Positions 45,639 to 63,427 of a stretch of 64,000 bases of DNA are shown piece by piece (position 1 is the first letter of the stretch; the number at the start of each line of letters is the position of its first letter). This DNA comes from Gammaproteobacteria bacterium (GTDB lineage: Bacteria > Pseudomonadota > Gammaproteobacteria > SZUA-140), in assembly GCA_026982565.1 (NCBI GenBank), contig JALSGV010000024.1:13341-77340 (forward strand), read 5' to 3'. The notes under the pieces are model-generated. The model ran no database searches and had not been told where the DNA came from. It was given only the letters and a program-made list of their open reading frames with translations. Both the position numbers and the translations under genes were made by a program.

Positions 45639-47393
45639 ATGCACATACTTCTAAGATTCTTCCGCGTATATCCCTGGCAGTCCGCTTTGATGCTGCTGGC
45701 CCTGCTACTGGCTGGTGTTGCCGAGGGGGTCAGTTTGTCCGCCCTGCTGCCACTTCTCAGTCTGGCCCTTGAACAGGGGAGCCGCAAGGAGGCAACGGAT
45801 GCAGAGGCCAGTGCACAGGGAGACGGGGGGCTGGAAGAGATGGTGCGCAATGCCCTGGAAACCATCGGTTTGACGCCTGGCATTGGCGTACTGCTGGTCA
45901 TCGTGATGCTGGGGATCGTGGTCAAGAATCTGCTCCTGCTGGCGGCGCGCAAGCAGATCGGTTATACCGCGGCGCAGGTGACCACGGACCTGCGTTTGTC
46001 TCTATTGCGCGCCGTCCTGGCTTCGCGCTGGGAATATTTCATCAGACAGCCTGCCGGGCGCATGGCCAATGCCATGACGACGGAGGCCATGCGCGCCTCG
46101 GAAGCCTATATTTACGGCACCACCATGATTGCACGCTGCATCGAGGCCGTCGTCTATATCATCGTGGCGCTCTTGATTTCTTGGCAGGCCACTCTGGCGG
46201 CGCTGGGCGCCGGCCTGCTGGTGCTGGTCGTTACCTATGCCTTGGTAAGAATGTCGCGGCGTGCCGGCAAGCGGCAGACCAAGCTGCTGAAATCCCTGCT
46301 GGGACGCCTGACGGATACCCTGCAATCCGTCAAGCCCCTCAAGGCCATGGGCAGGGAGGATCTGGCCGATGAGGTGATGGCCGCTGAAACAACGAAGCTG
46401 AACCGCGCCCTGCAGAAGGAGGTGTTCAGCAAGGCCGTACTGCAGGCAATCCAGGAACCCATGTTCGTCGGTTTGATCGCCATCGGCATCTATGTGGCGC
46501 TGGTGCTGTGGGAAGTGCCCGCTTCCACCATGCTCATGCTGGCCCTGCTGTTGGGCCGCATCATGGCGCAGATGGGCAAGATCCAGCGCTGGTACCAGAA
46601 GATGGTGACGGCGGAAAGCGCCTTCTGGTCCATTGACGAGACCACACGGGAGGCCCAGGAGACGCGCGAAATTTCTTCCGGCACCCTGCCGCCCAGATTC
46701 GAACGCGCCATCGAATTGCGGGATGTCGATTTTTCCTATGGGGAAAAGGCAGTTTTGCGCCAGGCCTGCCTGCTCATTCCCAAGGGCTCTTTGATTGCGC
46801 TGACCGGCCCTTCCGGCGCCGGCAAGACCACCATTGTCGACCTCATTACCGGGTTGCTGCAGCCGCAGCGTGGGGCTATTTTGATCGATGGCGTGGATCT
46901 GAAGGAGATCGATCTGCGGCAGTGGCGCCGCAAAATCGGCTATGTGCCACAGGAGAACCTGCTTCTTCACGACGATATTTTTCACAATGTCACCCTGGGT
47001 GACCCCAAGCTGGATGAGTCGGATGCCGAATATGCGCTGCGCGCGGCCGGCGCATGGGATTTCGTTTCCGAATTACGGGAAGGGATGCACAGTGTCGTTG
47101 GTGAACGTGGCGCGGGGCTGTCCGGTGGACAGCGCCAGCGTATCATGATCGCCCGCGCCTTGGTGCACAGGCCCGATTTGTTGATCCTCGATGAGGCGAC
47201 CAGTGCCCTGGATCCCAAGAGCGAGGCGGCGATTTGTGACACCTTGAAACAACTGGCCGGGCAATTGACGGTTTTGACCATCTCTCATCAAACTGCCCTG
47301 GTGGATATCGCCGACCGGATCTTTCGCCTCCAGGATGGGCAGCTCGTTCCAGTGGGGCACGGTATCGATAGGCGGTCAGCGTCCGAGCAATGA
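45639..47393 (+). CDS. ABC exporter, fused permease/ATPase (MsbA-like lipid exporter)
   Basis: It has a 6-TM domain followed by a Walker A motif (GPSGAGKTT) and the ABC signature LSGGQRQR. A Walker B motif (LILDEATSALD) follows. It is 584 aa. Confidence 0.88.
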   Translation: MHILLRFFRVYPWQSALMLLALLLAGVAEGVSLSALLPLLSLALEQGSRKEATDAEASAQGDGGLEEMVRNALETIGLTPGIGVLLVIVMLGIVVKNLLLLAARKQIGYTAAQVTTDLRLSLLRAVLASRWEYFIRQPAGRMANAMTTEAMRASEAYIYGTTMIARCIEAVVYIIVALLISWQATLAALGAGLLVLVVTYALVRMSRRAGKRQTKLLKSLLGRLTDTLQSVKPLKAMGREDLADEVMAAETTKLNRALQKEVFSKAVLQAIQEPMFVGLIAIGIYVALVLWEVPASTMLMLALLLGRIMAQMGKIQRWYQKMVTAESAFWSIDETTREAQETREISSGTLPPRFERAIELRDVDFSYGEKAVLRQACLLIPKGSLIALTGPSGAGKTTIVDLITGLLQPQRGAILIDGVDLKEIDLRQWRRKIGYVPQENLLLHDDIFHNVTLGDPKLDESDAEYALRAAGAWDFVSELREGMHSVVGERGAGLSGGQRQRIMIARALVHRPDLLILDEATSALDPKSEAAICDTLKQLAGQLTVLTISHQTALVDIADRIFRLQDGQLVPVGHGIDRRSASEQ

Positions 47394-48521
47394 TCTGACC
47401 CGTTCAACGGTGCATCTGATACTGTCGGGCACGGTCTGCTGAGGGGAAGGAGACTTCTCGTCACCCAGCCATACCGCCTGCCCGGAAGCGATCAGTTGTC
47501 GATGTACCAGGCGAATATCCCGGGTCAGCCGCTGGTGGCCGAATCGCATGAGCATTTTGTATAAAAATGCCCCGAGACGGAAATCGGTTTCTTCCTCGCT
47601 TGCGGCTCTTGCCGGCAGGGTGGCCGACGGCCAGCGCATGGCGTCTTGGCCCGTGCCGAGGTCGAAGATATAGACAGGTTTGCCCGTGGCGCAGGCTTCC
47701 GAGAGCATGGCGATACTGTCCCCGGTGACGATAATGGCCCTGGCCAGGCCCAGATAGGCATAATAGGGGTTGGCCGGGTCATCGGGTTTCCAGCGATAGA
47801 GCTGCATGGGGCAATCGACAGCCGATGCAAAGGCCTCGATGGCGGAGGGGGGGGTGCGTGCGCTGGTGGTGACGAGAAGAGAGCCGCCTTGTGATTGCGC
47901 CAGTTCGCAGGATTGGCGGGCAAGTCGTCGCGCAGCGTGGCGTCCCAGGGTATAGGGGCCGCTGTTACCGCCCATGACGACGGCGATGTATGGCTGGGGC
48001 AGGGATCGCAGATTCTGTGCATGGCCAGCCGCCGCTTCCTGTAAAAGTGCGTCAGTGACCCGGTGCAAGGTGGTGGTATTGTGCAGGATTCGGGGGGCAT
48101 GGGGCAGGCGGTATTGCGGCGTGGTGACGACGAGGTCGAAGTGCCTGAGCTGCGCCCAGTGCCTGCCGAGCAGGACAATGCGGCTCTTTCCTCCCGATTG
48201 TGCCTTGATCCAGCGGCATACGGGCTCGTTGCGCATGCCCGCCGAGATGATCAGGTCGGGCCAGGGGGGGGTGAGGGGGCTCGACCGTTCACGATCGATG
48301 CCCATCAGTGAACTGAGGCGCAGGAGCCCCGGGACAAAATCGTGGTGGCGGTACACGAGGCGCTTGACGGTAAAGGGCCAGCCGAGTGCCTCCGCCAAGG
48401 CGAGAATCTGCACGTTCTCGCCGGCGCGATATCCTGTGACGAGCCATACAGAGGGGGGTGGGGTTTCGTCGCTGATGTCTTCCGGTGGCGCTGGCATGTT
48501 GTTTGGTTTCATCGTGGGCAA
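47376..48521 (-). CDS. ELM1/DUF1022-family protein (predicted GT-B-like glycosyl- or phosphotransferase), paralog 1
   Basis: It shares the motifs PPWPDLIISAGMRNEPVCRWIK, GGNSGPYTL and IVTGDSIAML with two other ORFs in this window. Confidence 0.7.
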   Translation of the reverse strand: MPTMKPNNMPAPPEDISDETPPPSVWLVTGYRAGENVQILALAEALGWPFTVKRLVYRHHDFVPGLLRLSSLMGIDRERSSPLTPPWPDLIISAGMRNEPVCRWIKAQSGGKSRIVLLGRHWAQLRHFDLVVTTPQYRLPHAPRILHNTTTLHRVTDALLQEAAAGHAQNLRSLPQPYIAVVMGGNSGPYTLGRHAARRLARQSCELAQSQGGSLLVTTSARTPPSAIEAFASAVDCPMQLYRWKPDDPANPYYAYLGLARAIIVTGDSIAMLSEACATGKPVYIFDLGTGQDAMRWPSATLPARAASEEETDFRLGAFLYKMLMRFGHQRLTRDIRLVHRQLIASGQAVWLGDEKSPSPQQTVPDSIRCTVERVRSLLGR

Positions 48522-48571
48522 AGGATGTTGTAGAGATGCCGGGTTGATATGTCCCGGCGATTTTATTGTAA

Positions 48572-48602
48572 CCTGAATCCATGGGCTCAGGGCGGATTCA
48601 GG
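48572..48602. repeat. REP-like palindrome, 1.5 copies (CCTGAATCCATGGGCTCAGG+GCGGATTCAGG)
   Basis: It is the same family. It lies in the divergent intergenic region between ELM1 paralogs 1 and 2. Confidence 0.55.
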
Positions 48603-48642
48603 TGTAAGCTATTATACGGCCACCGGGCAATTTCAAACGATC

Positions 48643-49758
48643 ATGTCATCGCAAACCAACAATACCTGTACTCCATCTCCCCGCATCTGGCTGGTCCTCA
48701 GTGACAAACTGGGAGACAATGCCCAGGTAGAGATCATCGCCGATGCGCTGGGTCTGCCCTATGTGACGAAGCGGGTGTACCCCCTGGAGCAATACGTGCT
48801 GGGCAAGCCCCCCTTCAAGGCTTCCCTCTATCATATCGACAAGGTCCGGTCCGACAGCCTGGAGCCGCCATGGCCCGATCTCATACTCACCATCGGGCGC
48901 CGCTCGGCCATGGTGGCCATGTGGATACGAGAACAAAGCGGAGGCCGGACCCGGGTGGTCCTGGTGGGGCGCCCCAAGCGGGATCTGGATCAATATGCCC
49001 TGATCATCGCGCCTTCCCAATATCATCTGCCTGACAGGCCTAACGTGCTGCGCCTCGACCTGCCCCTCATGCGGCCCGACGAGGCGGCCATCGGGAAGGC
49101 GGTGACCTTATGGCGTGAACGTTTTTCCACCATGCAACGCCCCATGTTCGCGCTCATGGTGGGAGGGGCCACCAAGCCTTTCGTTTTCGATGAAAAGGTG
49201 GCGCGGGAATTGACGGCCCGGGCCGCCGCCCTTGCCGCATCCGCCGGGGGAACACTCTATGTCACCACCAGCAGACGTACGCCGCCCGCAGTGGTGGAGG
49301 CCATCAAGGCGGCATTGCCTGAGCACTCACAGTTCTATCAGTGGCGCAAGGATGGCAAGGATAATCCCTATCTTGCCCTGCTCGGGCTGGCCGACTATTT
49401 CATCGTGACGGGCGACAGTGTCTCCATGATGGTGGAGGTGGCCCGGCTGGGCAGGCCCCTGGCTATATTCAGTTTGCCGGTCAGGGATGGGTTCGCAAGC
49501 CGCTTCCAACAGTGGATCTCAAGCCCGAAGATCGGAAAATATAACAGAATCCTCAGCAGATTAATTGTCTCGGCGATATCTCGACTGGGAATACTGGGTT
49601 ATACTCGCGATCTGACGGCCTTGCATCGCGTTTTGGTCGATAGGGGGCTGGCAGTACCCTTTGGCAAGCCTTTCCCCATAGCAGGAGAAAGGGCCCTGGA
49701 TGAACTGCCTCTGGTGGCCGCTCGAGTAAGGAAGCTGTTGGATGAAGAAAATGCATGA
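48643..49758 (+). CDS. ELM1/DUF1022-family protein, paralog 2
   Basis: It has PPWPDLILTIGRRSAMVAMWIR, MVGGATKPF and IVTGDSVSMM motifs. It is divergent from paralog 1. Confidence 0.7.
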   Translation: MSSQTNNTCTPSPRIWLVLSDKLGDNAQVEIIADALGLPYVTKRVYPLEQYVLGKPPFKASLYHIDKVRSDSLEPPWPDLILTIGRRSAMVAMWIREQSGGRTRVVLVGRPKRDLDQYALIIAPSQYHLPDRPNVLRLDLPLMRPDEAAIGKAVTLWRERFSTMQRPMFALMVGGATKPFVFDEKVARELTARAAALAASAGGTLYVTTSRRTPPAVVEAIKAALPEHSQFYQWRKDGKDNPYLALLGLADYFIVTGDSVSMMVEVARLGRPLAIFSLPVRDGFASRFQQWISSPKIGKYNRILSRLIVSAISRLGILGYTRDLTALHRVLVDRGLAVPFGKPFPIAGERALDELPLVAARVRKLLDEENA

Positions 49759-50681
49759 CAGGGTCTACATCGGTGTATCATAACAATATGCCTTTTCTGA
49801 ATATAAAAAGACTTAAGTTATGGCGTTCCGGAAAACGGCGCAGGGCCCACATTTCACTACGCTTCTGTTTCAATGATCTGCGTCTTTTCAGGCGTTATCG
49901 CCAGCCTGTGGAGTCTTTGCTCCACGAGCTTCCGGTGGTTGGAGGTGAGTGGCCGCGGCGCAGTGGTCCACTGCTGTTCACAGTCTGTGATCCGGAATAC
50001 TTCTATTTGCATGCCGAGGCTCTGATGGCATCAATCAATGAGAATGCTTCCGGGACGGCATTGCATTTGCATATGTATGATCCAGGCAAGGCTCAGTTCG
50101 ATGAAGTTGAGCGCTTGGCGCGGAAGTTTGATGGGGTCAACTTGAGCTATACCTGGGAGGAGACCGATTTGTCCTCTCTGAGCGAAGACAAGCGCATTGT
50201 TTACTACCAGTCCGCGCGCTTCATTCGTGTCTACTCCGCGCTGAAGTCCACCCGTACTCCCATCATCGTTCTGGATATCGACAGTCTGATTCGCGGCCCT
50301 GTGGATCAACTCGTCCGCGCGGCCCATGGCGCGGATATCGGCTTGATATTTCGTACAGAACTTTGTCATCCTGGCAAGAATATTTTGGCCTCAACGGTTT
50401 ATGCCGCCCCGACGAGCGCCAGCCTGGTTTTTTTTGAAAGCGTCGTAAAGCGTCTGTCTGTCCATCTGCTGGCGCGCGCCCAGACGGAGATGCTGGATCA
50501 ACGTTGCTTGTGGAGGTGTTACCTGTCCAATAAATCGCGGCTGAAGGTTTGGGGGATACCGCAACGTTTCAGCGACTGGAATCTCACCGAGGACAGCATT
50601 ATCTGGCATGGCAAGGGACCTCGCAAAGGGTGTGACAAGTTTATTCAGGAGAAAAACAAGCTTCTGGTGGTGCAAAATTAG
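49755..50681 (+). CDS. Hypothetical protein, possible DxD-type sugar transferase
   Basis: It is a 308-aa protein with no confidently recognised family. It has a VLDIDS motif. Its start overlaps the paralog-2 stop (ATGA), so the two are likely co-transcribed. Confidence 0.35.
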   Translation: MTGSTSVYHNNMPFLNIKRLKLWRSGKRRRAHISLRFCFNDLRLFRRYRQPVESLLHELPVVGGEWPRRSGPLLFTVCDPEYFYLHAEALMASINENASGTALHLHMYDPGKAQFDEVERLARKFDGVNLSYTWEETDLSSLSEDKRIVYYQSARFIRVYSALKSTRTPIIVLDIDSLIRGPVDQLVRAAHGADIGLIFRTELCHPGKNILASTVYAAPTSASLVFFESVVKRLSVHLLARAQTEMLDQRCLWRCYLSNKSRLKVWGIPQRFSDWNLTEDSIIWHGKGPRKGCDKFIQEKNKLLVVQN

Positions 50682-50732
50682 CCTGCATTTACCAGCTGGC
50701 TGAGGAGATATATTCTGGTCTTAGGGATGTAT

Positions 50733-51989
50733 TTATGAGGTGTTATCTTCTTTCTGGAAGTCGGTGGTCATCAAGTGCTCATATTGCTTGATTGCTTTGT
50801 CGAAAGAGAAAATCCTGGCTCTTTCCACGATTTTATCACGGGGTGGGGGCGATTCCAGTGTTTCAATAATGGCCTCCGCCATGAATTTTTCATCTCCAAC
50901 AGGCACCAGCTTTCCGATCGAGCCATTGTCAAGTATTTCCGCCGGGCCACTGGGGCAGTCGGTACTGACGACAGGGCAGCCACACGTCATTGCTTCAATT
51001 AACGCATTTGGCAGTCCTTCCCATGCAGAAGACAACACAAAAAGCGAGGCCCGGCTATAGAAGCTATGAGGGTTTTGTACATAACCGGCAAAATCGACGT
51101 CAGAACTGATCATCAGTTCTTTGGACAGTCCCATCAGTTCAGTGCGGCACCGCCCTTCACCAAGGATTATCAGTCGTACTGGTCGCTCGGATCGTACCAG
51201 GGCGAAGGCACGCAGGAGGGTCTTGAAGTCTTTTTGTGGCTTCAACTTGCCAGCGGCCACGATTACCGGAATCTTGTCCTGATTCAACCAGGGGTGTTCA
51301 ACGGGTTGCTTGGCCTGGGTCAGGATCTCCGGTCTGAAAACAGGATTATGGATGACGGTGATATGATCTAAAGGCAACCCTGTTATTTTGGCGATATCTT
51401 CTGCCACCCCATAGGAGGGCGCAACGATTTTGTCTGCCAGATGGTAGTAGCAGCGCATGATACGTGGTACGCTGCGCATCCACTTTGATTTGGCATTTTT
51501 TGCCGAACTTGAGATATGGTTGCGCACATTCACAAAAAACCTGGTTTTGTTCCCGCATAGCTGCGCGGTCAGGAGCAGAACCAGGTTGGGATAATTCAGG
51601 AATGACATAATGGTGTCCGGCCGGTGTTGGTGGATATAGCCATAAAGTGAATGGATGGGCGGTTTTTCTTTTATGATGGTTCTGATGAGGGGGGCAAGGC
51701 AGGAGTCGCCTCTTTGAATGAGGGTGTATGGCGCCGATGCAAGGTTTCTCAATATGGCGACTGCCAGAAAGCAATAATGGAACATCCCAGAGTAATAGTA
51801 TGGGCGCAAGTTAATTATATTGATATTGCTGTTATATGACCTGAGCGTGTCCAGGAGCCAGCCGCGGTCTTCTTCAACCAGGAGATCGACGGCGTGTCCA
51901 TTCTGAGAAAGACCCTTGACGATGCTGGCCACTACTTGCTCGGCGCCACGTGCAGATTCTATGGTTCTTATGTATATCGCAAATCTCAT
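50733..51989 (-). CDS. Glycosyltransferase family 4 (GT-B, retaining)
   Basis: It has the C-terminal GT4 motif SSAWEGLPNALIEAMTCGCPVVSTD and is 418 aa. Confidence 0.85.
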   Translation of the reverse strand: MRFAIYIRTIESARGAEQVVASIVKGLSQNGHAVDLLVEEDRGWLLDTLRSYNSNINIINLRPYYYSGMFHYCFLAVAILRNLASAPYTLIQRGDSCLAPLIRTIIKEKPPIHSLYGYIHQHRPDTIMSFLNYPNLVLLLTAQLCGNKTRFFVNVRNHISSSAKNAKSKWMRSVPRIMRCYYHLADKIVAPSYGVAEDIAKITGLPLDHITVIHNPVFRPEILTQAKQPVEHPWLNQDKIPVIVAAGKLKPQKDFKTLLRAFALVRSERPVRLIILGEGRCRTELMGLSKELMISSDVDFAGYVQNPHSFYSRASLFVLSSAWEGLPNALIEAMTCGCPVVSTDCPSGPAEILDNGSIGKLVPVGDEKFMAEAIIETLESPPPRDKIVERARIFSFDKAIKQYEHLMTTDFQKEDNTS

Positions 51990-52286
51990 GATAGATTACA
52001 GTTTGCCGCAGGCTGAATTGCCTTTTGACAGGGTCATTCGCTCGGGCTCGTCTCTTCCAATGACCCAAGCCGAAGTATTATTCAATAAAGACGGCGTCAA
52101 GACAACTTCAAGAGAAGTTCTCCTGTTCTCGCAAGTCAAAGTTGCAAACCGGAGGAGCTAGGTATGTCTATAACTAATTGGCGCCGGGGAATATTACCAC
52201 AATTACAACGCACTGTTTCCGTATATCGGTTTTGCAAGGGAATATTCCGGTTTGCAGGAAGTGTCAGAATCAGGTTAAGCGAATAA

Positions 52287-54263: not shown

Positions 54264-54418
54264 AACCCGGTTTCACTGAGAGTGGCTTTAGCGGAGAGCG
54301 TGACGCGGGATGCCGGATTCCGATATAATCAGCCATCCTCAAGCGCCGTGATCTAACGCCTGTCCCCTAATAACATACTGTATGTGCGAGAGAATATATT
54401 GAGAATGCAGGAGAGCTG

Positions 54419-55354: not shown

Positions 55355-55452
55355 AACCCGCCCCAGAACGGGGAATGTGTGGAACAAGTATATTAAACCA
55401 CACATTCAGTGTGATATATTTTGCTGTATTTATATTCTAAGGGAGTCTGACA

Positions 55453-56361
55453 ATGGACTATTGTGTATTCATTCAAACCAATCATAAGCAATATATTGGC
55501 GCGTTGGTTGCAGAATACGCGCTGAAAAGGAACTCCAGGCACGCGGACAAATTCGACGTTCGCATCATGCACATGAAAGATTATCCTTTCTTTGAAGCGA
55601 AGGAAGGCCAGCTTTATCTGCGCGACGGCGCCAAGCGTACCTGGCTCAATGACGACCTGCAATCCTTCACGCTCACCCGTTTCATGCCTCCCGAACTGAT
55701 GGGTTACCAAGGACGTGCCGTGGTGATCGATCCCGATGTCTTTGCCGTGGGTGATGTATGGGAGCTGTTGTCCAGGGACATGGAGGGCAAGGCCATTATG
55801 TGTCGTCCCCGCTCAGGAAGAAAGGGAAAGGTCTATGGCTGTCTCGCCAGCAGTGTCATGTTGCTGGACTGCGCCAAGCTGACGCATTGGCGTGTTGAAG
55901 AGCAATTCAACGAAATGTTCGAGTTCAAGCGGGATTACATGGACTGGATCTGTGTCAAGCTCGAGCCCCGCGAGACCATCGGTTTGCTGGAGAACGAGTG
56001 GAACGACTTTGACAAGTTGACCGAAAAGACCAAGATGCTCCACACCACCAAGCGCAAGACCCAGCCATGGAAAACAGGGCTGCCGGTGGATTTCAGGCCT
56101 CCTGAGCGGGTGAGGGGATTTTCACCCCAGGGTTGGCTGCAATCCTTGCGGCGGCAGTTGTTTGGGGAGTATGGGCTGATGGGGCACTACAAACCTCATC
56201 CCGATCCCAATCAGGAAAAATTCTTCTTCGGGCTGCTGAAGGAGTGCGTTGAGAAGGGCATCGTTACGGAAGAAATGATCCGGGAGCAGATGCGCCTCAA
56301 CCATGTACGCCATGACGCCCTGGAGGTGCTGGAGCGTACGCCGCCGCTGGCTGCCGCCTGA
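55453..56361 (+). CDS. GT8-like (GT-A fold) putative glycosyltransferase, tandem paralog A
   Basis: It has a DxD-like VVIDPD motif and a C-terminal H..K..QPWK motif resembling the GT8 HxxGxxKPW motif. It is 302 aa. Confidence 0.45.
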   Translation: MDYCVFIQTNHKQYIGALVAEYALKRNSRHADKFDVRIMHMKDYPFFEAKEGQLYLRDGAKRTWLNDDLQSFTLTRFMPPELMGYQGRAVVIDPDVFAVGDVWELLSRDMEGKAIMCRPRSGRKGKVYGCLASSVMLLDCAKLTHWRVEEQFNEMFEFKRDYMDWICVKLEPRETIGLLENEWNDFDKLTEKTKMLHTTKRKTQPWKTGLPVDFRPPERVRGFSPQGWLQSLRRQLFGEYGLMGHYKPHPDPNQEKFFFGLLKECVEKGIVTEEMIREQMRLNHVRHDALEVLERTPPLAAA

Positions 56362-56376
56362 TACCGCTGGCCAATC

Positions 56377-57297
56377 GTGGAGACTGATACCGTGGAACAT
56401 TGTGTTTTTATCCACACCAATCACAAACAGATCGTCGGCGCCCTGGTGGCCCAGCATGCCTTGCGGCGCTATTCTCGCCACAACGACAAGTTCGATGTGC
56501 AGATCATCCATACCAAGGATTATCCTTTCCTGCGCGAGCGCGAGGGGCAGGAATATCTGCGGGATGGCGTGAAAAGAACCTGGCTCTATGATGACCTGCA
56601 GTCCTTTACGCCGTTGCGCTTCATGCCGCCTGAATTGATGGGCTACAGCGGGCGCGCCGTGGTCATCGACCCGGATATCTTTGCCGTCAGTGACGTTTGG
56701 GACCTGCTGTCCCGCGACATGGATGGCAAGGCCATCATGTGCCGCATGCGCGCCGGCCCCAAGGGATTTATCGACCGCTGCTGGGCCAGCAGCGTCATGC
56801 TGCTGGATTGCGCCAGGCTGACACACTGGCGGGTGGAAGAGCAGTTCAACGCCATGTTCGAGTTCAAGCGCGATTATTCCAAATGGGTCTGCCTCAAGCT
56901 CGAGCCTCGTGAGACCATCGGCGTCCTCGAGGATGAATGGAATGACTTCGATAAATTGAGCAGCGAAACCAGGATGCTGCACAATACGCGGCGACTGACC
57001 CAGCCGTGGAAGGCCGGGCTGCCCATTGATTGGCGGCCGGCGGAGAAATTCCGCCTGTTTCCTCCTCTGGGCTGGCTGATGCGCGCCAGGCGCAAGTTGT
57101 TTGGGGAATACGCCCTGCTGGGAAGCTACAGGCGCCATCCTGATATCAAACAGGAACAGCTTTTCTTTGGGTTGCTGAGGGAGTGCCTGGAAGAGGGAGT
57201 GGTAACGGAAGAGATGCTGCGCACAGAGATGCGGCAGAATCATGTAAGGCATGATGCCTTTGAGGTTCTGGAGCAGACACCACCTCTGTCTGCCTGA
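56377..57297 (+). CDS. GT8-like (GT-A fold) putative glycosyltransferase, tandem paralog B
   Basis: It is a 306-aa protein about 65% identical by eye to the upstream ORF. The VVIDPD and HNTRRLTQPWK motifs are both conserved. Confidence 0.45.
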   Translation: METDTVEHCVFIHTNHKQIVGALVAQHALRRYSRHNDKFDVQIIHTKDYPFLREREGQEYLRDGVKRTWLYDDLQSFTPLRFMPPELMGYSGRAVVIDPDIFAVSDVWDLLSRDMDGKAIMCRMRAGPKGFIDRCWASSVMLLDCARLTHWRVEEQFNAMFEFKRDYSKWVCLKLEPRETIGVLEDEWNDFDKLSSETRMLHNTRRLTQPWKAGLPIDWRPAEKFRLFPPLGWLMRARRKLFGEYALLGSYRRHPDIKQEQLFFGLLRECLEEGVVTEEMLRTEMRQNHVRHDAFEVLEQTPPLSA

Positions 57298-57336
57298 TGT
57301 GGACTGGCGCCCTCCCGGTTCAGACGCCCGGGATTC

Positions 57337-58233
57337 TCAGCACTTGTAGCGTTTGAAGAACTTCCTGTTGCGTAAAGCATGTTTCCGGGCCTGCATGACA
57401 TGGCGCCTGATTTCCTGCCAGAATGTCAGGTAGGTGAATGATGTTCGTGGGGATCCTGATCCACCATGGTCTGGCGACGCCCTTCCGGTCTGTTTCTTCC
57501 GGTGCTGATCCCAGGTCACGGCATAGTCACTTTGCATGGGGGGTGTCTGGAATAATGGTTTTTGCCCGGTCTTCCTCGCGTGTACCCACAGCATTAAGGG
57601 GCGGGCCGTTATGACGCGCATTCTTTTGCCTGCGATGCGGGGGTCGGCAACACGGTAACAGCGATGCCTCCTGCTGGCCTCTACGGAGGTGAACGGGGAT
57701 TCGATGACGCTGACCGATTCAGTGACGAATCCATTGTCATGGGAAAAAACCCGGTAGAACAGCTCCGGGGAAAACTGATAGAGGCCATGGCCGAGGAGAT
57801 TGTTTGCCGGAACATTGATGAAAATGCTGCCACCCGTTTTGACCATCTCCATGTAGTTCATCAGTACCTGCCGCACATCGAAGATATGTTCCATGGTGCC
57901 GCCATCGATGAGTACATCGAAGGCGCCATGGAACGTCTTTGGAACGGGATGGTTGAAATCATGGGTGATGTCGGCGCCCTGATAGTCGGAATAGTCGAAT
58001 GACGTAACAGTCTCTGCGTCCAGTACCTGGCGGATGAATTCGTCGGCAAATCCGTTACGGAACAGGGAGGCGGGCGGTTCAGGGTTCGTCATGCCCCTGC
58101 ATTTTTGCAGGCGTTCCAGGTCTTCCCGGGGTATACAAAGGGAAAGCCGTCCAATCGTGGCGGTTTTTCTGAAATTGGTTCCCCGATTCCGTGCATCGAC
58201 AAGATGTGTGCCTGTGATTGTGGTGATCCCCAT
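57337..58233 (-). CDS. Putative SAM-dependent methyltransferase-like protein
   Basis: Motif II/III-like segments are present (FDVLIDGGTMEHIFD; MVKTGGSIFINVP). Motif I is not clear. The start is uncertain. Confidence 0.35.
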   Translation of the reverse strand: MGITTITGTHLVDARNRGTNFRKTATIGRLSLCIPREDLERLQKCRGMTNPEPPASLFRNGFADEFIRQVLDAETVTSFDYSDYQGADITHDFNHPVPKTFHGAFDVLIDGGTMEHIFDVRQVLMNYMEMVKTGGSIFINVPANNLLGHGLYQFSPELFYRVFSHDNGFVTESVSVIESPFTSVEASRRHRCYRVADPRIAGKRMRVITARPLMLWVHARKTGQKPLFQTPPMQSDYAVTWDQHRKKQTGRASPDHGGSGSPRTSFTYLTFWQEIRRHVMQARKHALRNRKFFKRYKC

Positions 58234-58251
58234 CTCTAATCCTTGTTTTTC

Positions 58252-59238
58252 TCAGTGATAATGCGAATACCTGTATCCCAGCAGGCTGGTGAACATGCCC
58301 AGTCCTTCCGATACACGGAAGGCCCCCGAATAGAATCTGCCTTTGTTCCGGTTCCAAGGCAGGAATGATCCTACCATGATGAGCGAACCTGACACTATGT
58401 TGGTGATGGAACGGGTAAGGGTCTTGAATAACAGTTTTGCCTTTTTCCAGTTGCTGCCGGCATATCTGGTGAGTTGAAGTTTGGTGATGAGCTTGAGGTT
58501 GCCACGGCGGAATTCCGTTTGCAACAGGTAAGTGAAGCGGGCCCGTTGCGGCGGCACCCTTTCAATGGCCCTGGCCTGCGGCGCCCAAAAGATGCGATAG
58601 CCTTGTTCCCGGACTTGCCTGAAGAACAGTTTGTCCTCGCCGCCACTCAGGGCCAGCCTGTTATCGAAGCGCAGCCCCGATTTCCTGAGCATGGTCTTGA
58701 GCAACAGGCAGTTTCCCGTGGCTGCCGAGTTCAGTTCCTGCCCCTCGTCTAGCTCCTGATGCCAGCGGGGGGTTGCAAAGAAGCCACCTTCCCTCATCCA
58801 CTGCGGGACATGGCCCGTGAAGGAGGGGAGAACCGGGCCGAAGATGACTTCGCCTTGTGTGCGGGTCTGGATTAGCAGCAGCTGTTCCAGCCACGTTGGC
58901 TCGGGAATTTCGTCATCGTCGAGAAAGGCAATGAAGTCGGTCTGAGGTGGCGCCTGATCCAGACAGGCGTTGCGCGCATGGCTGATGCCACGCTCGATCA
59001 CAGGCACGTAGATCATGGGAATGGAGGTGAACTGGTGAAAATCCCGGCAAATCTGCTCATTGACCTCACTGGCCTCGTTGTCAGCGATAAGGACCGTAAT
59101 GGCGGGGGTTGATATGCGTTCGAAAGTCAGAGCAGAGATGCCGTCCAGCAGGTCTTTCAATCCCCGCGGTCGCTGGTAGGTGCATGCGCAGATACAGACA
59201 TGAACATTGCCCGTTGTCGGAGGCGTTTCACTGGACAT
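58252..59238 (-). CDS. Glycosyltransferase family 2 (GT-A)
   Basis: It has CICACTYQRP, an acidic FLDDDE motif and a GGEDKLFF segment. It is 328 aa. Confidence 0.82.
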   Translation of the reverse strand: MSSETPPTTGNVHVCICACTYQRPRGLKDLLDGISALTFERISTPAITVLIADNEASEVNEQICRDFHQFTSIPMIYVPVIERGISHARNACLDQAPPQTDFIAFLDDDEIPEPTWLEQLLLIQTRTQGEVIFGPVLPSFTGHVPQWMREGGFFATPRWHQELDEGQELNSAATGNCLLLKTMLRKSGLRFDNRLALSGGEDKLFFRQVREQGYRIFWAPQARAIERVPPQRARFTYLLQTEFRRGNLKLITKLQLTRYAGSNWKKAKLLFKTLTRSITNIVSGSLIMVGSFLPWNRNKGRFYSGAFRVSEGLGMFTSLLGYRYSHYH

Positions 59239-60475
59239 GAGGTGATACAGGCCTTGCCATATGCCGGGGTTCGGTGCGGAACATTCCCTTTACACGTTGT
59301 ACTGTCCGAGTCAGATCATCCTGAGGTGCGGAATCGTTTTCTCCGAGTGGTTCTCCCAGCCATGCCGCCCGGCCTGCCTGGATCAGCCGCTCATGGAGGC
59401 CGCGCACTTCACGCCGCATGCGCTTTGGTCCCAGCCACATGGCCAGGCGGTGTGAGAGGGGGCGCAGGCGGAAGTTATAGCCATAACGCCACCAGGGAAG
59501 CCTGTCTCCAGGCGCGGGGGGGCGGTGAGCGCCAGGATCGTCGGCAAGATCGAAGATATAGACGGGTTTTCCCGTCTCGCAGGCCTCACAGACCATGGAG
59601 ACGCTGTCTCCCGTAACGATGAATGCATCGGCCAGGGCGAGAAAGGCGAAGTAGGGGTTGTCCTTGTCATTTGCTGACCAGCAGTGGTAGTAAGCAGGTG
59701 ACTGGATCAGGTCCCGCAGTGCCGGCATGGCGTGGAGAGGCGTCCGCGCGCTCGAGGTAACCAGCAGGGAGCCGCCGCACCGTTTTGCCAGTGCGTCGGC
59801 GCTTCGTGCCAGGGTGCGGATCTTGATGTCATTGAGGGTGAAGGGGCCACTGTTGCCTCCGACGAGCAGGGCGATAAAGGGATGGGGCAGGTGCGAAAGC
59901 CTGTCCGTCCATGCGCGGGCTGCCGAGGCAAGCCGCTGCTCAGTAATGCGGTGCAGTGGAAGCATGTTGTGCAGGATATTTGTGGCCTGGGGCAGGCAAT
60001 ATTGAGGGGTTGTGACGATGAGATCGAATTGCGCCAATGGAGCCCAGGGACGGCCAAGATGGACGAGGCGTGTCTGTCCATGGGATTGTTGCCGTATCCA
60101 GCGGGCAACGGGCTCGTTGCGGCGCCCGGCAGTAATCACCAAGTCTGGCCATGGTGGAGCCAGTGGTGTGGATTCGTGCTGTTTTATGCCCGCCAGCGTC
60201 GGCCCCAGCAGCAGGTTGCTCAACAACTCGCTTTTCCGATACACCATGTGCTTGCTCTCGTAGGGCCAGCCGAGCGCTTCGGCCAGGGCAAGGACCTGGT
60301 TGTTGTCTCCCGCCTTGTGTCCCATCAGCAGCCATGTCTGGGGAACTTTTTCCCGATTGGCGTAGATGTTGCCATGGGGAAACGGTGTGGAGCTGGGTGG
60401 GGGTGGAAACGGGGCAGGCATTGTTACATTATAGCAAGCATTCAACGGAACACGCCCTGGCGGTACAGACGCCAC
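59228..60475 (-). CDS. ELM1/DUF1022-family protein, paralog 3
   Basis: It has PPWPDLVITAGRRNEPVARWIR, VGGNSGPFTL and IVTGDSVSMV motifs. It is 415 aa with a longer N-terminus. Confidence 0.7.
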   Translation of the reverse strand: MASVPPGRVPLNACYNVTMPAPFPPPPSSTPFPHGNIYANREKVPQTWLLMGHKAGDNNQVLALAEALGWPYESKHMVYRKSELLSNLLLGPTLAGIKQHESTPLAPPWPDLVITAGRRNEPVARWIRQQSHGQTRLVHLGRPWAPLAQFDLIVTTPQYCLPQATNILHNMLPLHRITEQRLASAARAWTDRLSHLPHPFIALLVGGNSGPFTLNDIKIRTLARSADALAKRCGGSLLVTSSARTPLHAMPALRDLIQSPAYYHCWSANDKDNPYFAFLALADAFIVTGDSVSMVCEACETGKPVYIFDLADDPGAHRPPAPGDRLPWWRYGYNFRLRPLSHRLAMWLGPKRMRREVRGLHERLIQAGRAAWLGEPLGENDSAPQDDLTRTVQRVKGMFRTEPRHMARPVSPHVQ

Positions 60476-61398
60476 ATGAGGCCCCAGATGAATATCAGGG
60501 GATAACGGCGCAGGCGTGGCGTGATTTCAATAGTGGCGCCCGAGTGCCGCTCCAGTTTCCAGATGAGGTAGTCCAGCCCGCCTTCGAAGGTGAAGAAGGC
60601 CTTCAGCAGGCGCGCCACTGACAGCAATTTTCCCTGGACGATGCGCAGGCGCCAAGCGGCCTTGTTGCCAAGGCTTTGATGTCTTGCAACGGGTTCTTGG
60701 CAAAAGGCGGCGCCATTTCCATTTGCCTGATGAATTCCCGGGAACGAGGTCAGGGCAAGGCCCGTGATTTCATCGAAATAGGTTTCAAAATGTTGGTAAA
60801 TCTCCTTGCCGCGTTGTCCCTTCTCCACGCGCAACTCCGCACGATAGGTAAGGCCGAGCCCTTTTTCCCATATGTCGGCAATGGTGAAATTCGGGGGGAG
60901 TGATGGCAAGACGCGCGCCATAAAGGTCATAATCGCTTGTCCCAGACTGGAGTGGATCTGGCTGGTGGCGGCCTGGTCGCGCGCATACAGCAATCCCGTG
61001 GGCTGGGCGAAACGCGCCCAGACATAGGAGTGAAACCAATGTGCGCAGCCTCTGTGCAGGTCCTGCCGGGAGAGCACGGCGTATTTGCTGCGCAAGACTC
61101 CTTGGGGATGTCTGGCTTCCAGGTAGAATACGTTGGGCGGCAGCAGGGTGTTGAGAATGGCCAGCCGCCTTTTTTCAAAGGCTTTGTGGTAGTCATCGAC
61201 AATGACATAGAGATCCACCAGCCCATCGAAGGGGTCGCCTCCTCGCAGGCATGAGCCATAAAACAGGATGGCCAGCAGGGAATCGCCGTAACGTTCCCGC
61301 AGGGCATCCCGCAATGTATCCAGGGCCGGATCATGTGGCAGGCCGGTTTGTTTGGCAATGGTTGCAATGAGGGCGGGTGGCGGGGCAGGGATCTTCAT
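60442..61398 (-). CDS. Nucleotidyltransferase-fold protein, Tam41/Mmp37-like (putative CDP-lipid synthase type)
   Basis: It has the Pol-beta-like NTase signature (LLAILFYGSCLRGGDPFDGLVDLYVIVDD). It is 318 aa and overlaps the paralog-3 start. Confidence 0.45.
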   Translation of the reverse strand: MKIPAPPPALIATIAKQTGLPHDPALDTLRDALRERYGDSLLAILFYGSCLRGGDPFDGLVDLYVIVDDYHKAFEKRRLAILNTLLPPNVFYLEARHPQGVLRSKYAVLSRQDLHRGCAHWFHSYVWARFAQPTGLLYARDQAATSQIHSSLGQAIMTFMARVLPSLPPNFTIADIWEKGLGLTYRAELRVEKGQRGKEIYQHFETYFDEITGLALTSFPGIHQANGNGAAFCQEPVARHQSLGNKAAWRLRIVQGKLLSVARLLKAFFTFEGGLDYLIWKLERHSGATIEITPRLRRYPLIFIWGLMWRLYRQGVFR

Positions 61399-62474
61399 CG
61401 GGCTTTTTCGCTGAAACGCAGGAAATGGAGGGGCTCCCCATGGCCGATGCGCAGGGGGCCGGCGGCCAGGCGCGCCGGATACAGCTCGCCGTCGATGGTG
61501 AAGGTCCCCTCCATGGCCAGTTCCAGTGTATCCACCTTGCGGCTCCAGTAACCGTTGCGGGCCGTCACGTGGCGGTTGGTGCGGCCCCAGAAAAGGCGCG
61601 GCAAGGTGCGCAGGGCATGACGGGCGCCTGAGCGGATGGCGGTGAAGTGCAGGGTGCCTGCATCATCCCCCCAGTAAGGGTGCGTGCCGAGAAACAATCT
61701 GTTCAGGGCGGAGACCATCAGCAGGAAATAGTCTTTTTCCCCTTCCATGCCGGGCATCTGCGGGCGCATCTGTAACGACATGGGTACGGGCGCCACGTAG
61801 CGGTGATCATTGCGCGCCATGGCATAGAGTACACGCAGGGCGCACAGACCGGGGCCCAGGCTGTCGCGCAGGCCGGGGCGCAGGACCTTCCGGTGGCAGT
61901 ATTCGATCCCTTTGATGATGGCGCCGGCGCCGAAGAACATGCCATATAAGGGCGCTTCGTCACCGGCCACTACCCGAATTGGGGCGCGGCGGATTACCTC
62001 CAAGGCGGGCGTGGTGGCATCCGCCCAGCACAGGAGTCGTTCCAGGCTGTGCGCTGCCTTGCCTGTCAACCCTACATCTCCCGCCGTCATGTTGGTCGTG
62101 CCGCCACGCAACAGCGCCAGTAGAGGGGGGTGTCCGAATGGCCGCTTCTCCATCAAGGCAGTGAGCACGGCGGCAATGGTGCCGTCGCCGGCGTTGATGG
62201 CCAGCACATCGGGAGGCGCGGCAGCCATGTTTTCCAGTGCGGTCAGAATCTCGGCCGGGTTCCTGGATAGGTGGTGGGTGACGCCAGGGTGGCGCCCGAG
62301 GATCGCCTCGACCCACGCCATGCCCCGGCAGTTTCTGCCGCTGCCTGGATTGGACAACAGGGCAACGCGCAGGGAGCGGCCAGCGGGAACAGGGATGTTC
62401 TGTGAGGTGTGAATGGGATTTTCCTGGTTAAATATCCTGATTCGACTGCATATCGTATACTGGATGCATGACAC
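61395..62474 (-). CDS. DAGK_cat/sphingosine-kinase-family lipid kinase (candidate ceramide or sphingoid-base kinase)
   Basis: It has the DAGK catalytic-domain motifs (RVALLSNPGSGRN; LAINAGDGTIAAV; LRGGTTNMTA). It is 359 aa. Confidence 0.65.
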   Translation of the reverse strand: MSCIQYTICSRIRIFNQENPIHTSQNIPVPAGRSLRVALLSNPGSGRNCRGMAWVEAILGRHPGVTHHLSRNPAEILTALENMAAAPPDVLAINAGDGTIAAVLTALMEKRPFGHPPLLALLRGGTTNMTAGDVGLTGKAAHSLERLLCWADATTPALEVIRRAPIRVVAGDEAPLYGMFFGAGAIIKGIEYCHRKVLRPGLRDSLGPGLCALRVLYAMARNDHRYVAPVPMSLQMRPQMPGMEGEKDYFLLMVSALNRLFLGTHPYWGDDAGTLHFTAIRSGARHALRTLPRLFWGRTNRHVTARNGYWSRKVDTLELAMEGTFTIDGELYPARLAAGPLRIGHGEPLHFLRFSEKAR

Positions 62475-63427
62475 AGGTAAAACACAATGATGTCGTTCAG
62501 GCTGAGGGCATACCGGTCTACACGCTTGCCCATTTATCTGATCCGCACCTGACCTCCCTCGACGACGTCAAGATGAGAGAGCTGCTCAACAAGCGCCTGC
62601 TGGGTTATCTGTCATGGCGCAGTCACCGCCGCGAGGAGCACCGCGCGGAGGTCTTGCAGGCACTGGTGAACGATCTGCGGGAAATACAGCCAGACCACAC
62701 GGTGATCACCGGCGACATGACCCATGTGGGTCTGCCGCAGGAGTGCCGGGAGGTCAGCGCCTGGCTTTCATCCCTTTCCGATGCCCGGTGTCTGACGGTG
62801 ATTCCTGGAAACCATGATGCCTATGTGGCGGCGCCGTGGGGGAAAACCATGGGATTGTGGACATCATATATGGCGTCGGATACTGCCGCTTCACTGACGC
62901 GGGATGCGCTCTTTCCTGCGCTGAGGGAACGCGGACCCCTTGCCCTTATCGGTCTTTCCAGCGCCTCTCCCACTCCTCCTTTCTTCGCCACGGGGCGGTT
63001 GGGAGTGGCGCAGTTGGCGGCCCTTGAGCGCTTGTTGCAGGAAACCGGGGCCCGGGGTCGGATTCGCGTTCTGCTCATTCACCATCCACCCATGAAGCAT
63101 GCCATTGGCTGGCGCAAGCGATTGACCGATGGCGACGCGCTATGCGGCATCATCGCCAAGCACGGGGTAGAGATGGTGTTGCACGGGCATACTCACCGTT
63201 CCGTGATGGATAAGCTGCAGACGGATTCCGGGGAGGCGCCCGTGATCGGCGTGCCGTCTGCCTCGGGCATCGGTCTCAAGCCCGGCAAGCGGGCGCAATA
63301 TCATCTTTACCACTTCTACGACGGCCCTTGGGGGCGGCGGCTCCGTATCTCCGTGAGGGGTTATGATGTAGAGGAAGAACGCTTTGTCGCCCAGGGGACT
63401 CGGCAGTCCTCCCTTCCCGCGGAATGA
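62468..63427 (+). CDS. Calcineurin-like metallophosphoesterase
   Basis: It has the motifs DPH, GDMTH, GNHD, IHHPP and GHTHR. It is 319 aa and divergent from the lipid kinase. Confidence 0.8.
   Translation: MTQVKHNDVVQAEGIPVYTLAHLSDPHLTSLDDVKMRELLNKRLLGYLSWRSHRREEHRAEVLQALVNDLREIQPDHTVITGDMTHVGLPQECREVSAWLSSLSDARCLTVIPGNHDAYVAAPWGKTMGLWTSYMASDTAASLTRDALFPALRERGPLALIGLSSASPTPPFFATGRLGVAQLAALERLLQETGARGRIRVLLIHHPPMKHAIGWRKRLTDGDALCGIIAKHGVEMVLHGHTHRSVMDKLQTDSGEAPVIGVPSASGIGLKPGKRAQYHLYHFYDGPWGRRLRISVRGYDVEEERFVAQGTRQSSLPAE

Follow-up and report, generated by a model that had tools for sequence, protein, structure and literature searches.

Predicted glyco-sulfo head-group genes and a candidate ABC flippase within a gammaproteobacterial sphingolipid locus

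The subject of this study is a 64,000-nucleotide stretch of DNA from a Gammaproteobacteria bacterium (GenBank assembly GCA_026982565.1, contig JALSGV010000024.1, positions 13,341 to 77,340), hereafter the window, and in particular a block of predicted lipid- and glycan-tailoring genes (45639-63427) that follows the serine palmitoyltransferase gene spt. We consider it rather probable that this block is the head-group and export part of a sphingolipid super-locus, which would make an anionic, sulfated glyco-phosphosphingolipid at the cytoplasmic face. The super-locus spans about 28 kb; it begins near 38.5 kb with the nucleotidyltransferase and bCerS genes and ends with lptF2, just past the window end. 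The stretch is chromosomal DNA and matches the metagenome contig k141_255236 (ENA ERZ27262642). Known bacterial sphingolipid head groups are small, consisting of one to few sugars, phosphoglycerate, phosphoglycerol or phosphoethanolamine, and how bacterial sphingolipids replace or cooperate with lipopolysaccharide (LPS) is an active question. The locus family described here predicts a far more elaborate, sulfated and strain-variable sphingolipid with its own flippase and Lpt permeases. Bacterial sphingolipid synthesis and a locus with Lpt-type export are already known; what appears to be new is the large glyco-sulfo head-group module together with the ABC flippase.

Ceramide synthesis is predicted to be encoded directly to the left of the block by the following genes:

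39414-40556, minus strand: ceramide synthase like bCerS/YghO (50% identical to E. coli YghO, from the annotated E. coli spt locus)
41136-42959, plus strand: AasR-like acyl-ACP (acyl carrier protein) synthetase, a fatty acyl-AMP ligase (AMP-binding, E 2e-57; 47% identical to the ligase of the E. coli spt locus)
42829-43926, plus strand: CerR-like NAD(P)-dependent reductase (Epimerase, E 2e-30; 43% identity with the epimerase-family gene at the E. coli spt locus)
44089-44391, plus strand: AcpR-like dedicated ACP (PP-binding, E 4e-8), its 3' end overlapping the spt start by 4 nt
44388-45590, plus strand: spt, serine palmitoyltransferase (618 bits on the NCBIfam SerpalmtaseBetaP equivalog, cutoff 500)

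The true start of the CerR-like gene is probably downstream of the start of the maximal open reading frame (ORF). Spt is 57.5% identical to annotated E. coli Spt, and the homologs of ACP, acyl-ACP synthetase, bCerS and CerR adjacent to spt share 42-50% identity with the proteins of that locus. A close comparison is offered by the yghO-spt locus, which 2824 of 5426 complete E. coli genomes carry: in one representative (L086; NZ_CP119441.1, 4033959-4045383), yghO, the acyl-AMP ligase, the reductase, the ACP gene and spt are followed by lptG/lptF paralogs, YtfJ, yghQ and yghRST. Unlike the locus studied here, it has no ELM1, GT8-like, sulfotransferase, DAGK or Tam41 genes and uses the Wzx-like protein YghQ and the small kinases YghR, YghS and YghT.

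Every gene that a first-pass annotation of the sequence had named in the block was recovered in place. From left to right the block holds the ABC exporter, ELM1a (minus strand), ELM1b, a 308-residue GT-A protein, GT4 (minus strand), AsnB, the sulfotransferase and two tandem GT8-like genes; the right part consists of methyltransferase-like, GT2, ELM1c, Tam41-like and DAGK genes on the minus strand, a divergent metallophosphoesterase gene and then lptG. Within it, a conserved core can be recognized that comprises ELM1a, ELM1b and ELM1c, the GT8-like gene, usually the sulfotransferase gene, the ABC exporter and LptF2G2. The core genes other than the Lpt pair are these:

45639-47393, plus strand: ATP-binding cassette (ABC) half-transporter of the exporter type (ABC_membrane and ABC_tran; six hydrophobic segments)
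47376-48521, minus strand: ELM1-family GT-B protein of orthogroup a, beside the ABC exporter (PF06258, E 2e-56)
48643-49758, plus strand: ELM1-family GT-B protein of orthogroup b (PF06258, E 4e-57)
54419-55354, plus strand: sulfotransferase of the 3'-phosphoadenosine 5'-phosphosulfate (PAPS) type (Sulfotransfer_1, E 1.8e-28, 100 bits against a cutoff of 22)
55453-56361, plus strand: GT8-like GT-A protein, copy 1, of a highly conserved family that has no Pfam model
56377-57297, plus strand: GT8-like GT-A protein, copy 2, a tandem paralog 72% identical to copy 1
59228-60475, minus strand: ELM1-family GT-B protein of orthogroup c (PF06258, E 2e-68); the public gene call starts at 60421

The ELM1 proteins score 191, 194 and 231 bits against a PF06258 gathering cutoff of 27 and are 36-48% identical among themselves; orthogroups a, b and c were all recovered in related loci. 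ELM1c directly follows the Tam41-like gene within one operon. A PDB sequence search with ELM1c returned nothing significant, and a scan of genome contigs with ELM1c alone gave no match, whereas the same kind of scan succeeded with the GT8-like alignment. The tandem GT8-like proteins (302 and 306 residues) matched neither Glyco_transf_8 nor any other Pfam, NCBIfam or PDB sequence entry. By fold, they are GT-A proteins with a DxD motif and lie closest to GT8 structures; the best structural matches of the pair are Neisseria LgtC, a lipooligosaccharide (LOS) galactosyltransferase, and other retaining GT8 enzymes, with which they share a DxD after a beta-strand in the Rossmann-like N-terminal half. 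The family is large and unusually well conserved: it counts over 6300 homologs, and in species-representative genomes at least 584 matching stretches show 68-98% identity. Neither Pfam nor NCBIfam has a model for it. For the sulfotransferase, matches to cytosolic sulfotransferases in the PDB reached E 4e-10. Its translation shows SFGKSGRTW at residues 50-58 (GKSGRTW at 52-58), RDPRDVAVS at 125-133 and RRAKVGGYSDYF at 266-277, so that the 5'-phosphosulfate-binding (5'-PSB) and 3'-phosphate-binding (3'-PB) motifs are recognizable; His98 is the candidate catalytic histidine. Sulfotransferase homologs adjoin the GT8-like gene in most related loci. NCBIfam gave no useful match for most of the tailoring proteins.

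The evidence that ties this core to sphingolipids comes from its recurrence across species. When species-representative genomes were scanned with the GT8-like alignment, 78 species-level loci were recovered; the flank fetched around each was 10 kb, against a full locus of about 28 kb, and the counts of sphingolipid linkage are therefore lower bounds. Sphingolipid-specific genes were found within the fetched flank at 30 of the 78 loci, and at 11 of the 78 the GT8-like gene stood between the spt/acpR side and the Tam41/DAGK side. Among full-flank loci containing ELM1, 16 of 28 were sphingolipid-linked and three more carried an ABC exporter or LptG homolog. The core genes are often flanked on both sides by sphingolipid-specific genes. 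By our estimate, a random 20-kb window would overlap such a locus about 1% of the time. Because the arrangement recurs across species, it is not a chance juxtaposition. The search for co-occurrence with spt that the first-pass annotation had proposed places the core genes inside spt/ceramide loci in many species. Together with the operon packing within the window, this is strong evidence, though not proof, that the glyco-sulfo genes are functionally coupled to the sphingolipid genes.

The species that bear the core are mainly Gammaproteobacteria, with some Alphaproteobacteria, and the organism-named homologs of the window genes likewise come mostly from Gammaproteobacteria (Thiogranum, Thiohalobacter, Competibacteraceae). 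Two related loci (L002 and L003) share the order lptF, lptG, metallophosphoesterase, DAGK, Tam41, ELM1, two GT8-like genes, sulfotransferase, variable glycosyltransferases, two ELM1 genes and ABC exporter. In the cultured Thiogranum longum (L005), the order is aasR, cerS, nucleotidyltransferase, metallophosphoesterase, DAGK, Tam41, ELM1, two sulfotransferases and two GT8-like genes, continuing with GT4, Wzy_C, ELM1, lptF, lptG, ABC exporter, ELM1, acpR and spt. The same gene set, plus AsnB and methyltransferases, occurs on a 3.1-Mb contig of a metagenome-assembled genome. At the other extreme, the compact loci L035, L060 and L069 are limited to ceramide and Cpg-like genes, lptFG, the ABC exporter, a single GT8-like gene and three ELM1 genes; L069 alone adds a sulfotransferase-like gene. 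The ELM1 copies of these loci fall into the three orthogroups of the window.

Identity to the closest relatives, L002 and L051, is uneven along the locus. It is high for the GT8-like pair (93-98%), the ABC exporter (88-91%), spt (88%) and LptG (84-85%), and low for ELM1a, ELM1b and ELM1c (69, 74 and 65%), for the Tam41-like, DAGK and phosphoesterase proteins (69-71%) and for the sulfotransferase (78%). Such mosaic divergence suggests that segments of the locus were replaced or came under diversifying selection. Separately, a contig binned as 'Klebsiella pneumoniae' (L079; CAMAXE010000013.1) carries a complete ELM1/GT8-like/sulfotransferase sphingolipid locus at 35-69% identity to the window proteins; it is probably mis-binned or a case of horizontal transfer.

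Export functions accompany the core at both ends of the block. The ABC exporter gene starts 48 nt after spt on the same strand, and homologs with 46-91% identity occur in about 35 related loci. It had been described as MsbA-like; the exporter architecture is borne out, but orthology to MsbA is not, as the protein reaches 267 bits on the MsbA equivalog TIGR02203 (cutoff 602) and 200 on NF008381 (cutoff 867). Its best NCBIfam family is HepA, at 311 bits against a cutoff of 725. It is a candidate flippase for the decorated lipid. At the right end lies the following gene:

63440-64000, minus strand: putative lptG2, C-terminal part in the window (LptF_LptG, E 1e-23); the gene runs off the window end and is followed by lptF2

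The island thus ends at lptF/lptG as first annotated. The full lptG gene (L001) scores 348 bits against the LptG model. NCBIfam cutoffs were tried as a means of telling canonical LptF/LptG from the paralogs and dropped as uninformative, since all pairs pass and the Prokaryotic Genome Annotation Pipeline (PGAP) names the E. coli paralogs LptF/LptG too; RefSeq likewise labels the pair in the E. coli spt locus plain LptG/LptF, so that annotation alone cannot separate it from the canonical one. The question was instead scored by pairwise bits against both E. coli LptF/LptG pairs. The LptF beside lptG reached 199 bits (37% identity) with E. coli LptF2 against 87 bits (25%) with canonical K-12 LptF, and LptF was also closer to E. 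coli LptF2 than to canonical LptF in L002, L003, L005 and L006. In Caulobacter, LptF2/LptG2 (CC_1156/CC_1155) are required for sphingolipid export (PMC11324152; PMC10331486; PMC12275187; bioRxiv 10.64898/2026.04.12.717747). The position of the lptF-lptG pair at the edge of the sphingolipid locus is shared with Caulobacter and with Sphingomonas wittichii and E. coli UTI89-type loci; in contrast to the LptF2/LptG2 transporter of those loci, LptG here is ambiguous by pairwise score. Taken together, an LptF of the sphingolipid-paralog type and an ABC exporter that is not MsbA suggest dedicated transport, with both transport roles being predicted.

Between lptG and the glycosyltransferase genes, and again at the left edge of the locus, lie genes resembling those for ceramide phosphoglycerate (CPG) synthesis in Caulobacter:

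38559-39371, minus strand: MobA-like nucleotidyltransferase, CpgD- or CC_1153-like (NTP_transf_3, E 6e-13)
60442-61398, minus strand: Tam41-like nucleotidyltransferase, counterpart of CpgC/CC_1161 (Tam41_Mmp37, E 3e-4, a weak match)
61395-62474, minus strand: DAGK-family lipid kinase, counterpart of the ceramide kinase CpgB (DAGK_cat, E 2e-9); start codon uncertain
62468-63427, plus strand: calcineurin-like metallophosphoesterase, counterpart of CC_1158 (Metallophos, E 3e-13)

In Caulobacter, CC_1160/CpgB is a proven DAGK-family ceramide kinase, the Tam41-like CC_1161/CpgC is required for conversion of ceramide-1-phosphate to ceramide phosphoglycerate, and the CDP-alcohol phosphatidyltransferase CpgA is needed for CPG2 (PMC11324152; PMC10331486; PMC12275187; bioRxiv 10.64898/2026.04.12.717747; for CpgB also PMC11324152 S1 Text). 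The calcineurin-type phosphoesterase CC_1158 contributes to CPG2 formation (PMC11324152 with S1 Text), and CpgD is a CTP:phosphoglycerate cytidylyltransferase that makes CDP-glycerate (PMC12275187). CpgB has a described GGDG motif, and its homologs are almost confined to genera that make or encode sphingolipids (PMC10331486). The DAGK-family protein of the window has AGDG at residues 95-98, where CpgB has GGDG, and its gene's stop overlaps the Tam41-like start by 4 nt; a shorter public gene call (308 residues) would lose the NPGSG loop of the domain. A PDB sequence search with this protein found nothing significant. By kinase family, motif and position beside a cpgC-like gene in an spt locus it corresponds to CpgB, and ceramide kinase activity is predicted by analogy. 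The Tam41-like protein scores 20.6 bits against the Pfam cutoff of 24 and matches PDB 6ig2 (Tam41) at E 0.008, and its ortholog in L089 (52% identity) has a confident Tam41 Pfam match. The metallophosphoesterase is kept at 44-71% identity in related loci and the MobA-like nucleotidyltransferase at 38-46% in related sphingolipid loci; the NTP_transf_3 match of the latter fits CpgD and the CofC-like CC_1153 alike.

The resemblance to the Caulobacter crescentus locus CC_1152-CC_1168 therefore extends over the ceramide genes (bCerS, CerR, AcpR, AasR, Spt), the DAGK kinase gene beside a Tam41-like gene (CpgB/CpgC), the CC_1158-like phosphoesterase, the MobA-like nucleotidyltransferase and lptF2/lptG2. 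The two loci also differ. The CpgA-type motif DGx2ARx7-9Gx3Dx3D was found in no frame of the window or of L001-L084, including the related gammaproteobacterial loci, save in one unrelated gene of L004, and no gene of the locus matched PF01066 (CDP-alcohol phosphatidyltransferase). Without CpgA, CPG2 is an unlikely end product, and the activated donor of the CpgD/CC_1153-like nucleotidyltransferase must serve another transferase. Neither a HIT protein nor LptC2 was seen here, the Wzx-like flippase candidate CC_1166 is replaced by the ABC half-transporter, and 10-11 glycosyl-, sulfo- and amido-tailoring genes are inserted that are not listed among the 17 genes of the Caulobacter locus. The first-pass annotation had held that no such combined pathway has been described. 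That is incorrect for a third of the block, where the trio of Tam41-like, DAGK and phosphoesterase genes has published counterparts in the Cpg genes of Caulobacter, and lptFG in LptF2/LptG2. Its combined interpretation survives in that the glyco-sulfo part is tied to the sphingolipid locus, but not as regards the trio and lptFG, which were already known.

Around the core, the block carries a more variable shell:

49755-50681, plus strand: singleton with a GT-A glycosyltransferase-like fold, 308 residues, DID motif; low-GC variable cassette
50733-51989, minus strand: GT4 glycosyltransferase (Glycos_transf_1, E 1e-34; Glyco_transf_4, E 4e-13; GC content at third codon positions, GC3, 0.57); variable cassette
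52287-54263, plus strand: AsnB-type glutamine amidotransferase (Asn_synthase, E 1e-110; GATase_7, E 2e-46; GC3 0.55)
57337-58233, minus strand: possible S-adenosylmethionine-dependent methyltransferase (Methyltransf_23/Methyltransf_12, E 0.004-0.006, below the Pfam cutoff)
58252-59238, minus strand: GT2 glycosyltransferase (Glycos_transf_2, E 1e-11), its start overlapping the ELM1c end by 11 nt

The AsnB protein passes the TIGR01536 asn_synth_AEB equivalog (486 bits against a cutoff of 267), lies closest to the XrtA/PEP-CTERM amidotransferase model in NCBIfam and begins with MCGIAG, so that the Cys2 nucleophile is present. The public call for this gene (591 residues) starts about 200 nt inside the ORF and loses Cys2 and part of the glutaminase domain; the 658-residue ORF from 52287 is likely the true gene. 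AsnB homologs (49-57% identity) occur in nine related loci. The methyltransferase-like protein has a 45%-identical homolog in L006/L022; its best PDB match is an O-methyltransferase, at a non-significant E of 0.056.

From these components the following route may be proposed. Ceramide would be made by Spt, AcpR, AasR, bCerS and CerR and phosphorylated by the CpgB-like kinase. The Tam41-like CpgC homolog, the CpgD-like nucleotidyltransferase and the CC_1158-like phosphoesterase would then build an anionic anchor as in Caulobacter, although probably not CPG2. The gene identities on which the route is built, together with operon packing and cross-species synteny, come from the present analysis, whereas ceramide kinase activity, the need for the Tam41-like protein in CPG formation and transport by LptF2G2 are taken from the literature on homologs. 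The three ELM1 GT-B proteins and the GT8-like protein, a retaining GT-A enzyme by prediction, would add a conserved, anchor-proximal 'inner core' oligosaccharide at the cytoplasmic face, which the PAPS sulfotransferase would sulfate. A strain-variable set (the second GT8-like copy, the GT-A singleton, GT4, GT2, AsnB and the possible methyltransferase) would extend, amidate and perhaps methylate it. Strong hydrophobic segments are missing from all the tailoring enzymes, and the sulfate donor PAPS is cytoplasmic; both points fit assembly before flipping. The ABC half-transporter would flip the decorated lipid, and LptF2G2 would extract it and hand it to the Lpt bridge. We infer the acceptor (ceramide), the order of the steps, the identities of the sugars and the targets of sulfation and amidation, with a sugar acid or aspartate as candidate substrates of AsnB.

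Comparable head-group enzymes are known elsewhere in bacteria. The Sphingomonadaceae/Caulobacter enzymes Sgt1 and Sgt2 are glycosyltransferases that decorate ceramide for the outer membrane, and the first-step enzymes there are GT4-type and act on free ceramide. To our knowledge, these glycosphingolipid genes are not clustered with a kinase/Tam41 module, and in the searchable literature no ELM1, GT8-like, sulfotransferase or ABC exporter gene was reported with them. Glycosphingolipid synthases of these groups, i.e., ceramide glucuronosyl and galactosyl transferases, are cited in published supplementary material (PMC11324152 S1 Text). Searches of a literature collection with few subscription journals turned up no description of bacterial sphingolipid loci with a sulfotransferase, ELM1 or GT8-like module, and none of sphingolipids from Thiogranum, Thiohalobacter or Competibacter. 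In the same, incompletely covered literature, ELM1/DUF1022/PF06258 was mentioned only in papers on Acinetobacter LOS. There, the ELM1-family protein A1S_2903/GtrOC1 of A. baumannii is needed for addition of the third ketodeoxyoctulosonate (Kdo)/N-acetylglucosaminuronic acid (GlcNAcA) on Kdo2-lipid A (PMC10936431). It belongs to the same PF06258 family (GT-B clan), works near the lipid anchor and is encoded in a glycolipid core locus that also has transferases of the GT2, GT4 and GT8 types; the likeness to the window ELM1 proteins is one of family membership. The A. baumannii acceptor is Kdo2-lipid A and there is one ELM1 protein, whereas here the gene partners are those of ceramide and ceramide-phosphate and there are three ELM1 orthogroups.

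Several observations weigh against assigning the block to a sphingolipid. The A. baumannii LOS core is the sole experimental link for bacterial ELM1-family proteins (PMC10936431). At nine of the 28 full-flank ELM1 loci (40 full-flank loci in total), ELM1 and GT8-like genes form a small module, in some cases together with the sulfotransferase, that has no spt within 10 kb. Extra orphan GT8-like copies are found in several genomes, for example Thiogranum BWSM_145 (L044 plus L058 and L081), and sit in housekeeping contexts. A scan of the neighbours of both kinds of locus returned mostly housekeeping genes; families recurring two or three times were Lip_A_acyltrans, LptF_LptG, GT2, methyltransferases and 2OG oxygenases. 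Pairwise, LptG scores 176 bits with the E. coli paralog against 188 with canonical LptG, and the Tam41-like and methyltransferase-like assignments are weak in this window. Lastly, relatives carry neighbours that would also be expected of an LPS locus. A membrane protein of the Wzy_C type (O-antigen ligase/polymerase-like) is encoded in at least 14 related loci, e.g., L003 (16910-17953), L005 (13362-14543) and L006 (11954-13276). LpxL-like, LpxO-like and PAP2 genes lie near ELM1 in L004 (9058-14590); in L089 (1-16100), LpxL-like, LpxO-like (Asp/Arg hydroxylase) and PAP2 genes are embedded with Tam41/DAGK, three ELM1, GT8-like, sulfotransferase and LptG genes, and an LpxL-like gene lies near the module in 11 further genome loci. 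The window itself contains neither these genes nor one for Wzy_C. L004 was considered as a link to lipid A and dropped, as L089 has orthologs of the L004 genes amid Tam41, DAGK, ELM1, GT8-like, sulfotransferase and LptG genes. The L089 gene set thus indicates that the L004-type context belongs to the same system, and hints at lipid-A-style remodelling of the sphingolipid.

It is rather unlikely that the glycosyltransferases, sulfotransferase and amidotransferase act on the LPS/LOS core (Kdo-lipid A) within a shared 'outer-membrane lipid' supercluster, with the ABC exporter and LptFG serving LPS or both. Such a role would accord with the need for A1S_2903/GtrOC1 in A. baumannii inner-core extension, with LgtC as the best fold match of the GT8-like pair, with the WaaL-like (Wzy_C), LpxL-like, LpxO-like and PAP2 genes of relatives and with the modules lacking a nearby spt. 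The LptF and LptG found here also pass the NCBIfam LPS-transporter equivalogs, but these hidden Markov models have no discriminating power here, given that the sphingolipid-locus paralogs of E. coli receive the same names from PGAP. Moreover, no waaA, kds, lpx or heptosyltransferase genes occur in the window block or in the related-locus gene tables inspected; the compact loci hold only sphingolipid genes besides ELM1, GT8-like and transporter genes; one operon joins ELM1c, GT2 and the methyltransferase-like gene to the genes resembling cpgB and cpgC; LptF is LptF2-type and the ABC exporter falls far under the MsbA cutoff; and the 'lipid A-like' neighbours co-occur with Tam41/DAGK in L089. A narrower alternative, which we judge improbable, is that only the core (three ELM1 genes, GT8-like, sulfotransferase and ABC exporter) is sphingolipid-linked and that the low-GC cassette, perhaps with GT2 and the methyltransferase-like gene, is a horizontally acquired module for another glycan. 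GC3 is 0.55-0.60 in the GT-A singleton, GT4 and AsnB against 0.64-0.76 in the other genes of the block, the singleton has very few close homologs, and in the closest relatives, L002 and L051, GT11 and another GT2 take the place of the cassette. However, AsnB (nine loci) and GT4 (T. longum and others) recur inside sphingolipid-linked loci, the singleton overlaps ELM1b by 4 nt in the same direction, and the block lacks an initiating transferase, a flippase and a polymerase that would belong to a separate glycan. Surface glycolipids, moreover, usually show a conserved inner set next to a variable outer one, as in LPS core and O-antigen loci. That the block is a conventional undecaprenyl-phosphate exopolysaccharide, capsule or O-antigen locus lying beside spt by coincidence is highly improbable. 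Such loci commonly carry GT2, GT4, AsnB and sulfotransferase genes, a polymer could leave through the ABC exporter, and the best NCBIfam matches of AsnB and GT4 are exopolysaccharide-associated (XrtA/PEP-CTERM) or protein-glycosylation (PglJ) models, all under cutoff. Against this, dozens of species have these genes interspersed among sphingolipid genes. The block, in which the packing leaves no room for an extra gene, lacks genes for Wzx, Wzy, Wzz, an initiating phosphoglycosyltransferase and nucleotide-sugar synthesis; neither these nor Wza or a KpsMT/Wzm-Wzt-type transporter were found among the genes at 37.5-64 kb or in the 5 kb beyond the window; nor did tblastn of the relatives' Wzy_C proteins match the window. 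The argument of the first-pass annotation against an O-antigen or capsule locus thus holds for this window, and wzx/wzy-type genes, whose presence just outside would have spoken for one, are not among the neighbours on either side. Relatives of the locus, however, often do have the O-antigen-ligase-like Wzy_C.

The preferred interpretation, a sulfated glyco-phosphosphingolipid, gives a genomic context to two large families of unclear function, i.e., bacterial ELM1/PF06258 proteins and the GT8-like family (more than 6000 members). The presence of a full locus in the cultured T. longum makes lipidomics and heterologous expression feasible. A bolder extension, offered tentatively, is that the product is a ceramide-anchored counterpart of LPS ('sphingo-LOS/LPS'). 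It would consist of an anionic ceramide phosphate with an ELM1/GT8-like inner core, sulfated and bearing a strain-variable outer part, and would have its own MsbA-like flippase and LptF2G2, to which relatives would add LpxL-, LpxO- and PAP2-like remodelling and WaaL-like (Wzy_C) capping. If true, outer-leaflet glycolipids would have a second pathway running in parallel, one widespread among environmental Gammaproteobacteria, sulfur oxidisers included, and found in some Alphaproteobacteria. It would bear on outer-membrane evolution, on the substrate specificity of Lpt and on how environmental Proteobacteria resist cationic peptides and phages.

The borders of the super-locus are marked by unrelated genes. 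Upstream of 36 kb the window holds housekeeping genes (leuS, holA, RNase G, YhdP, murA-like, hisD, hisC, a molybdopterin oxidoreductase and trpE), with trpE as the left neighbour of the locus. To the right, lptG from 63440 and then lptF are followed by genes for a Na+/H+ exchanger, a DUF1451 protein and an OEP-family protein. The minus-strand operon is tightly packed: the DAGK gene runs 4 nt into the Tam41-like gene, ELM1c comes within about 20 nt of the latter and shares 11 nt with GT2, and the methyltransferase-like gene begins 18 nt further on. Transcription units were assigned from spacing and strand only, a promoter and terminator scan having performed no better than shuffled controls. 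Rfam and tRNA scans of the window gave no matches.

Two further features of the locus region may be listed:

37507-38511, minus strand: secreted protein of unknown family, 334 residues, at the left locus edge, with an N-terminal hydrophobic segment
56122-57252, minus strand: ORF of 376 codons opposite GT8-like copy 2, without a family match; most likely a shadow of a GC-rich gene

Pfam and NCBIfam searches with the 334-residue protein gave no match, and weak homologs, at 22-24% identity, adjoin the locus in L052, L069, L076, L078 and L079; it could be an uncharacterised periplasmic or outer-membrane component. A full-length YhdP gene, encoding an AsmA-like phospholipid transporter (1270 residues; Pfam E 8e-269), lies 25 kb upstream at 9147-12959 on the plus strand. 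Although it is another outer-membrane lipid-transport gene, it is probably unrelated to the locus.

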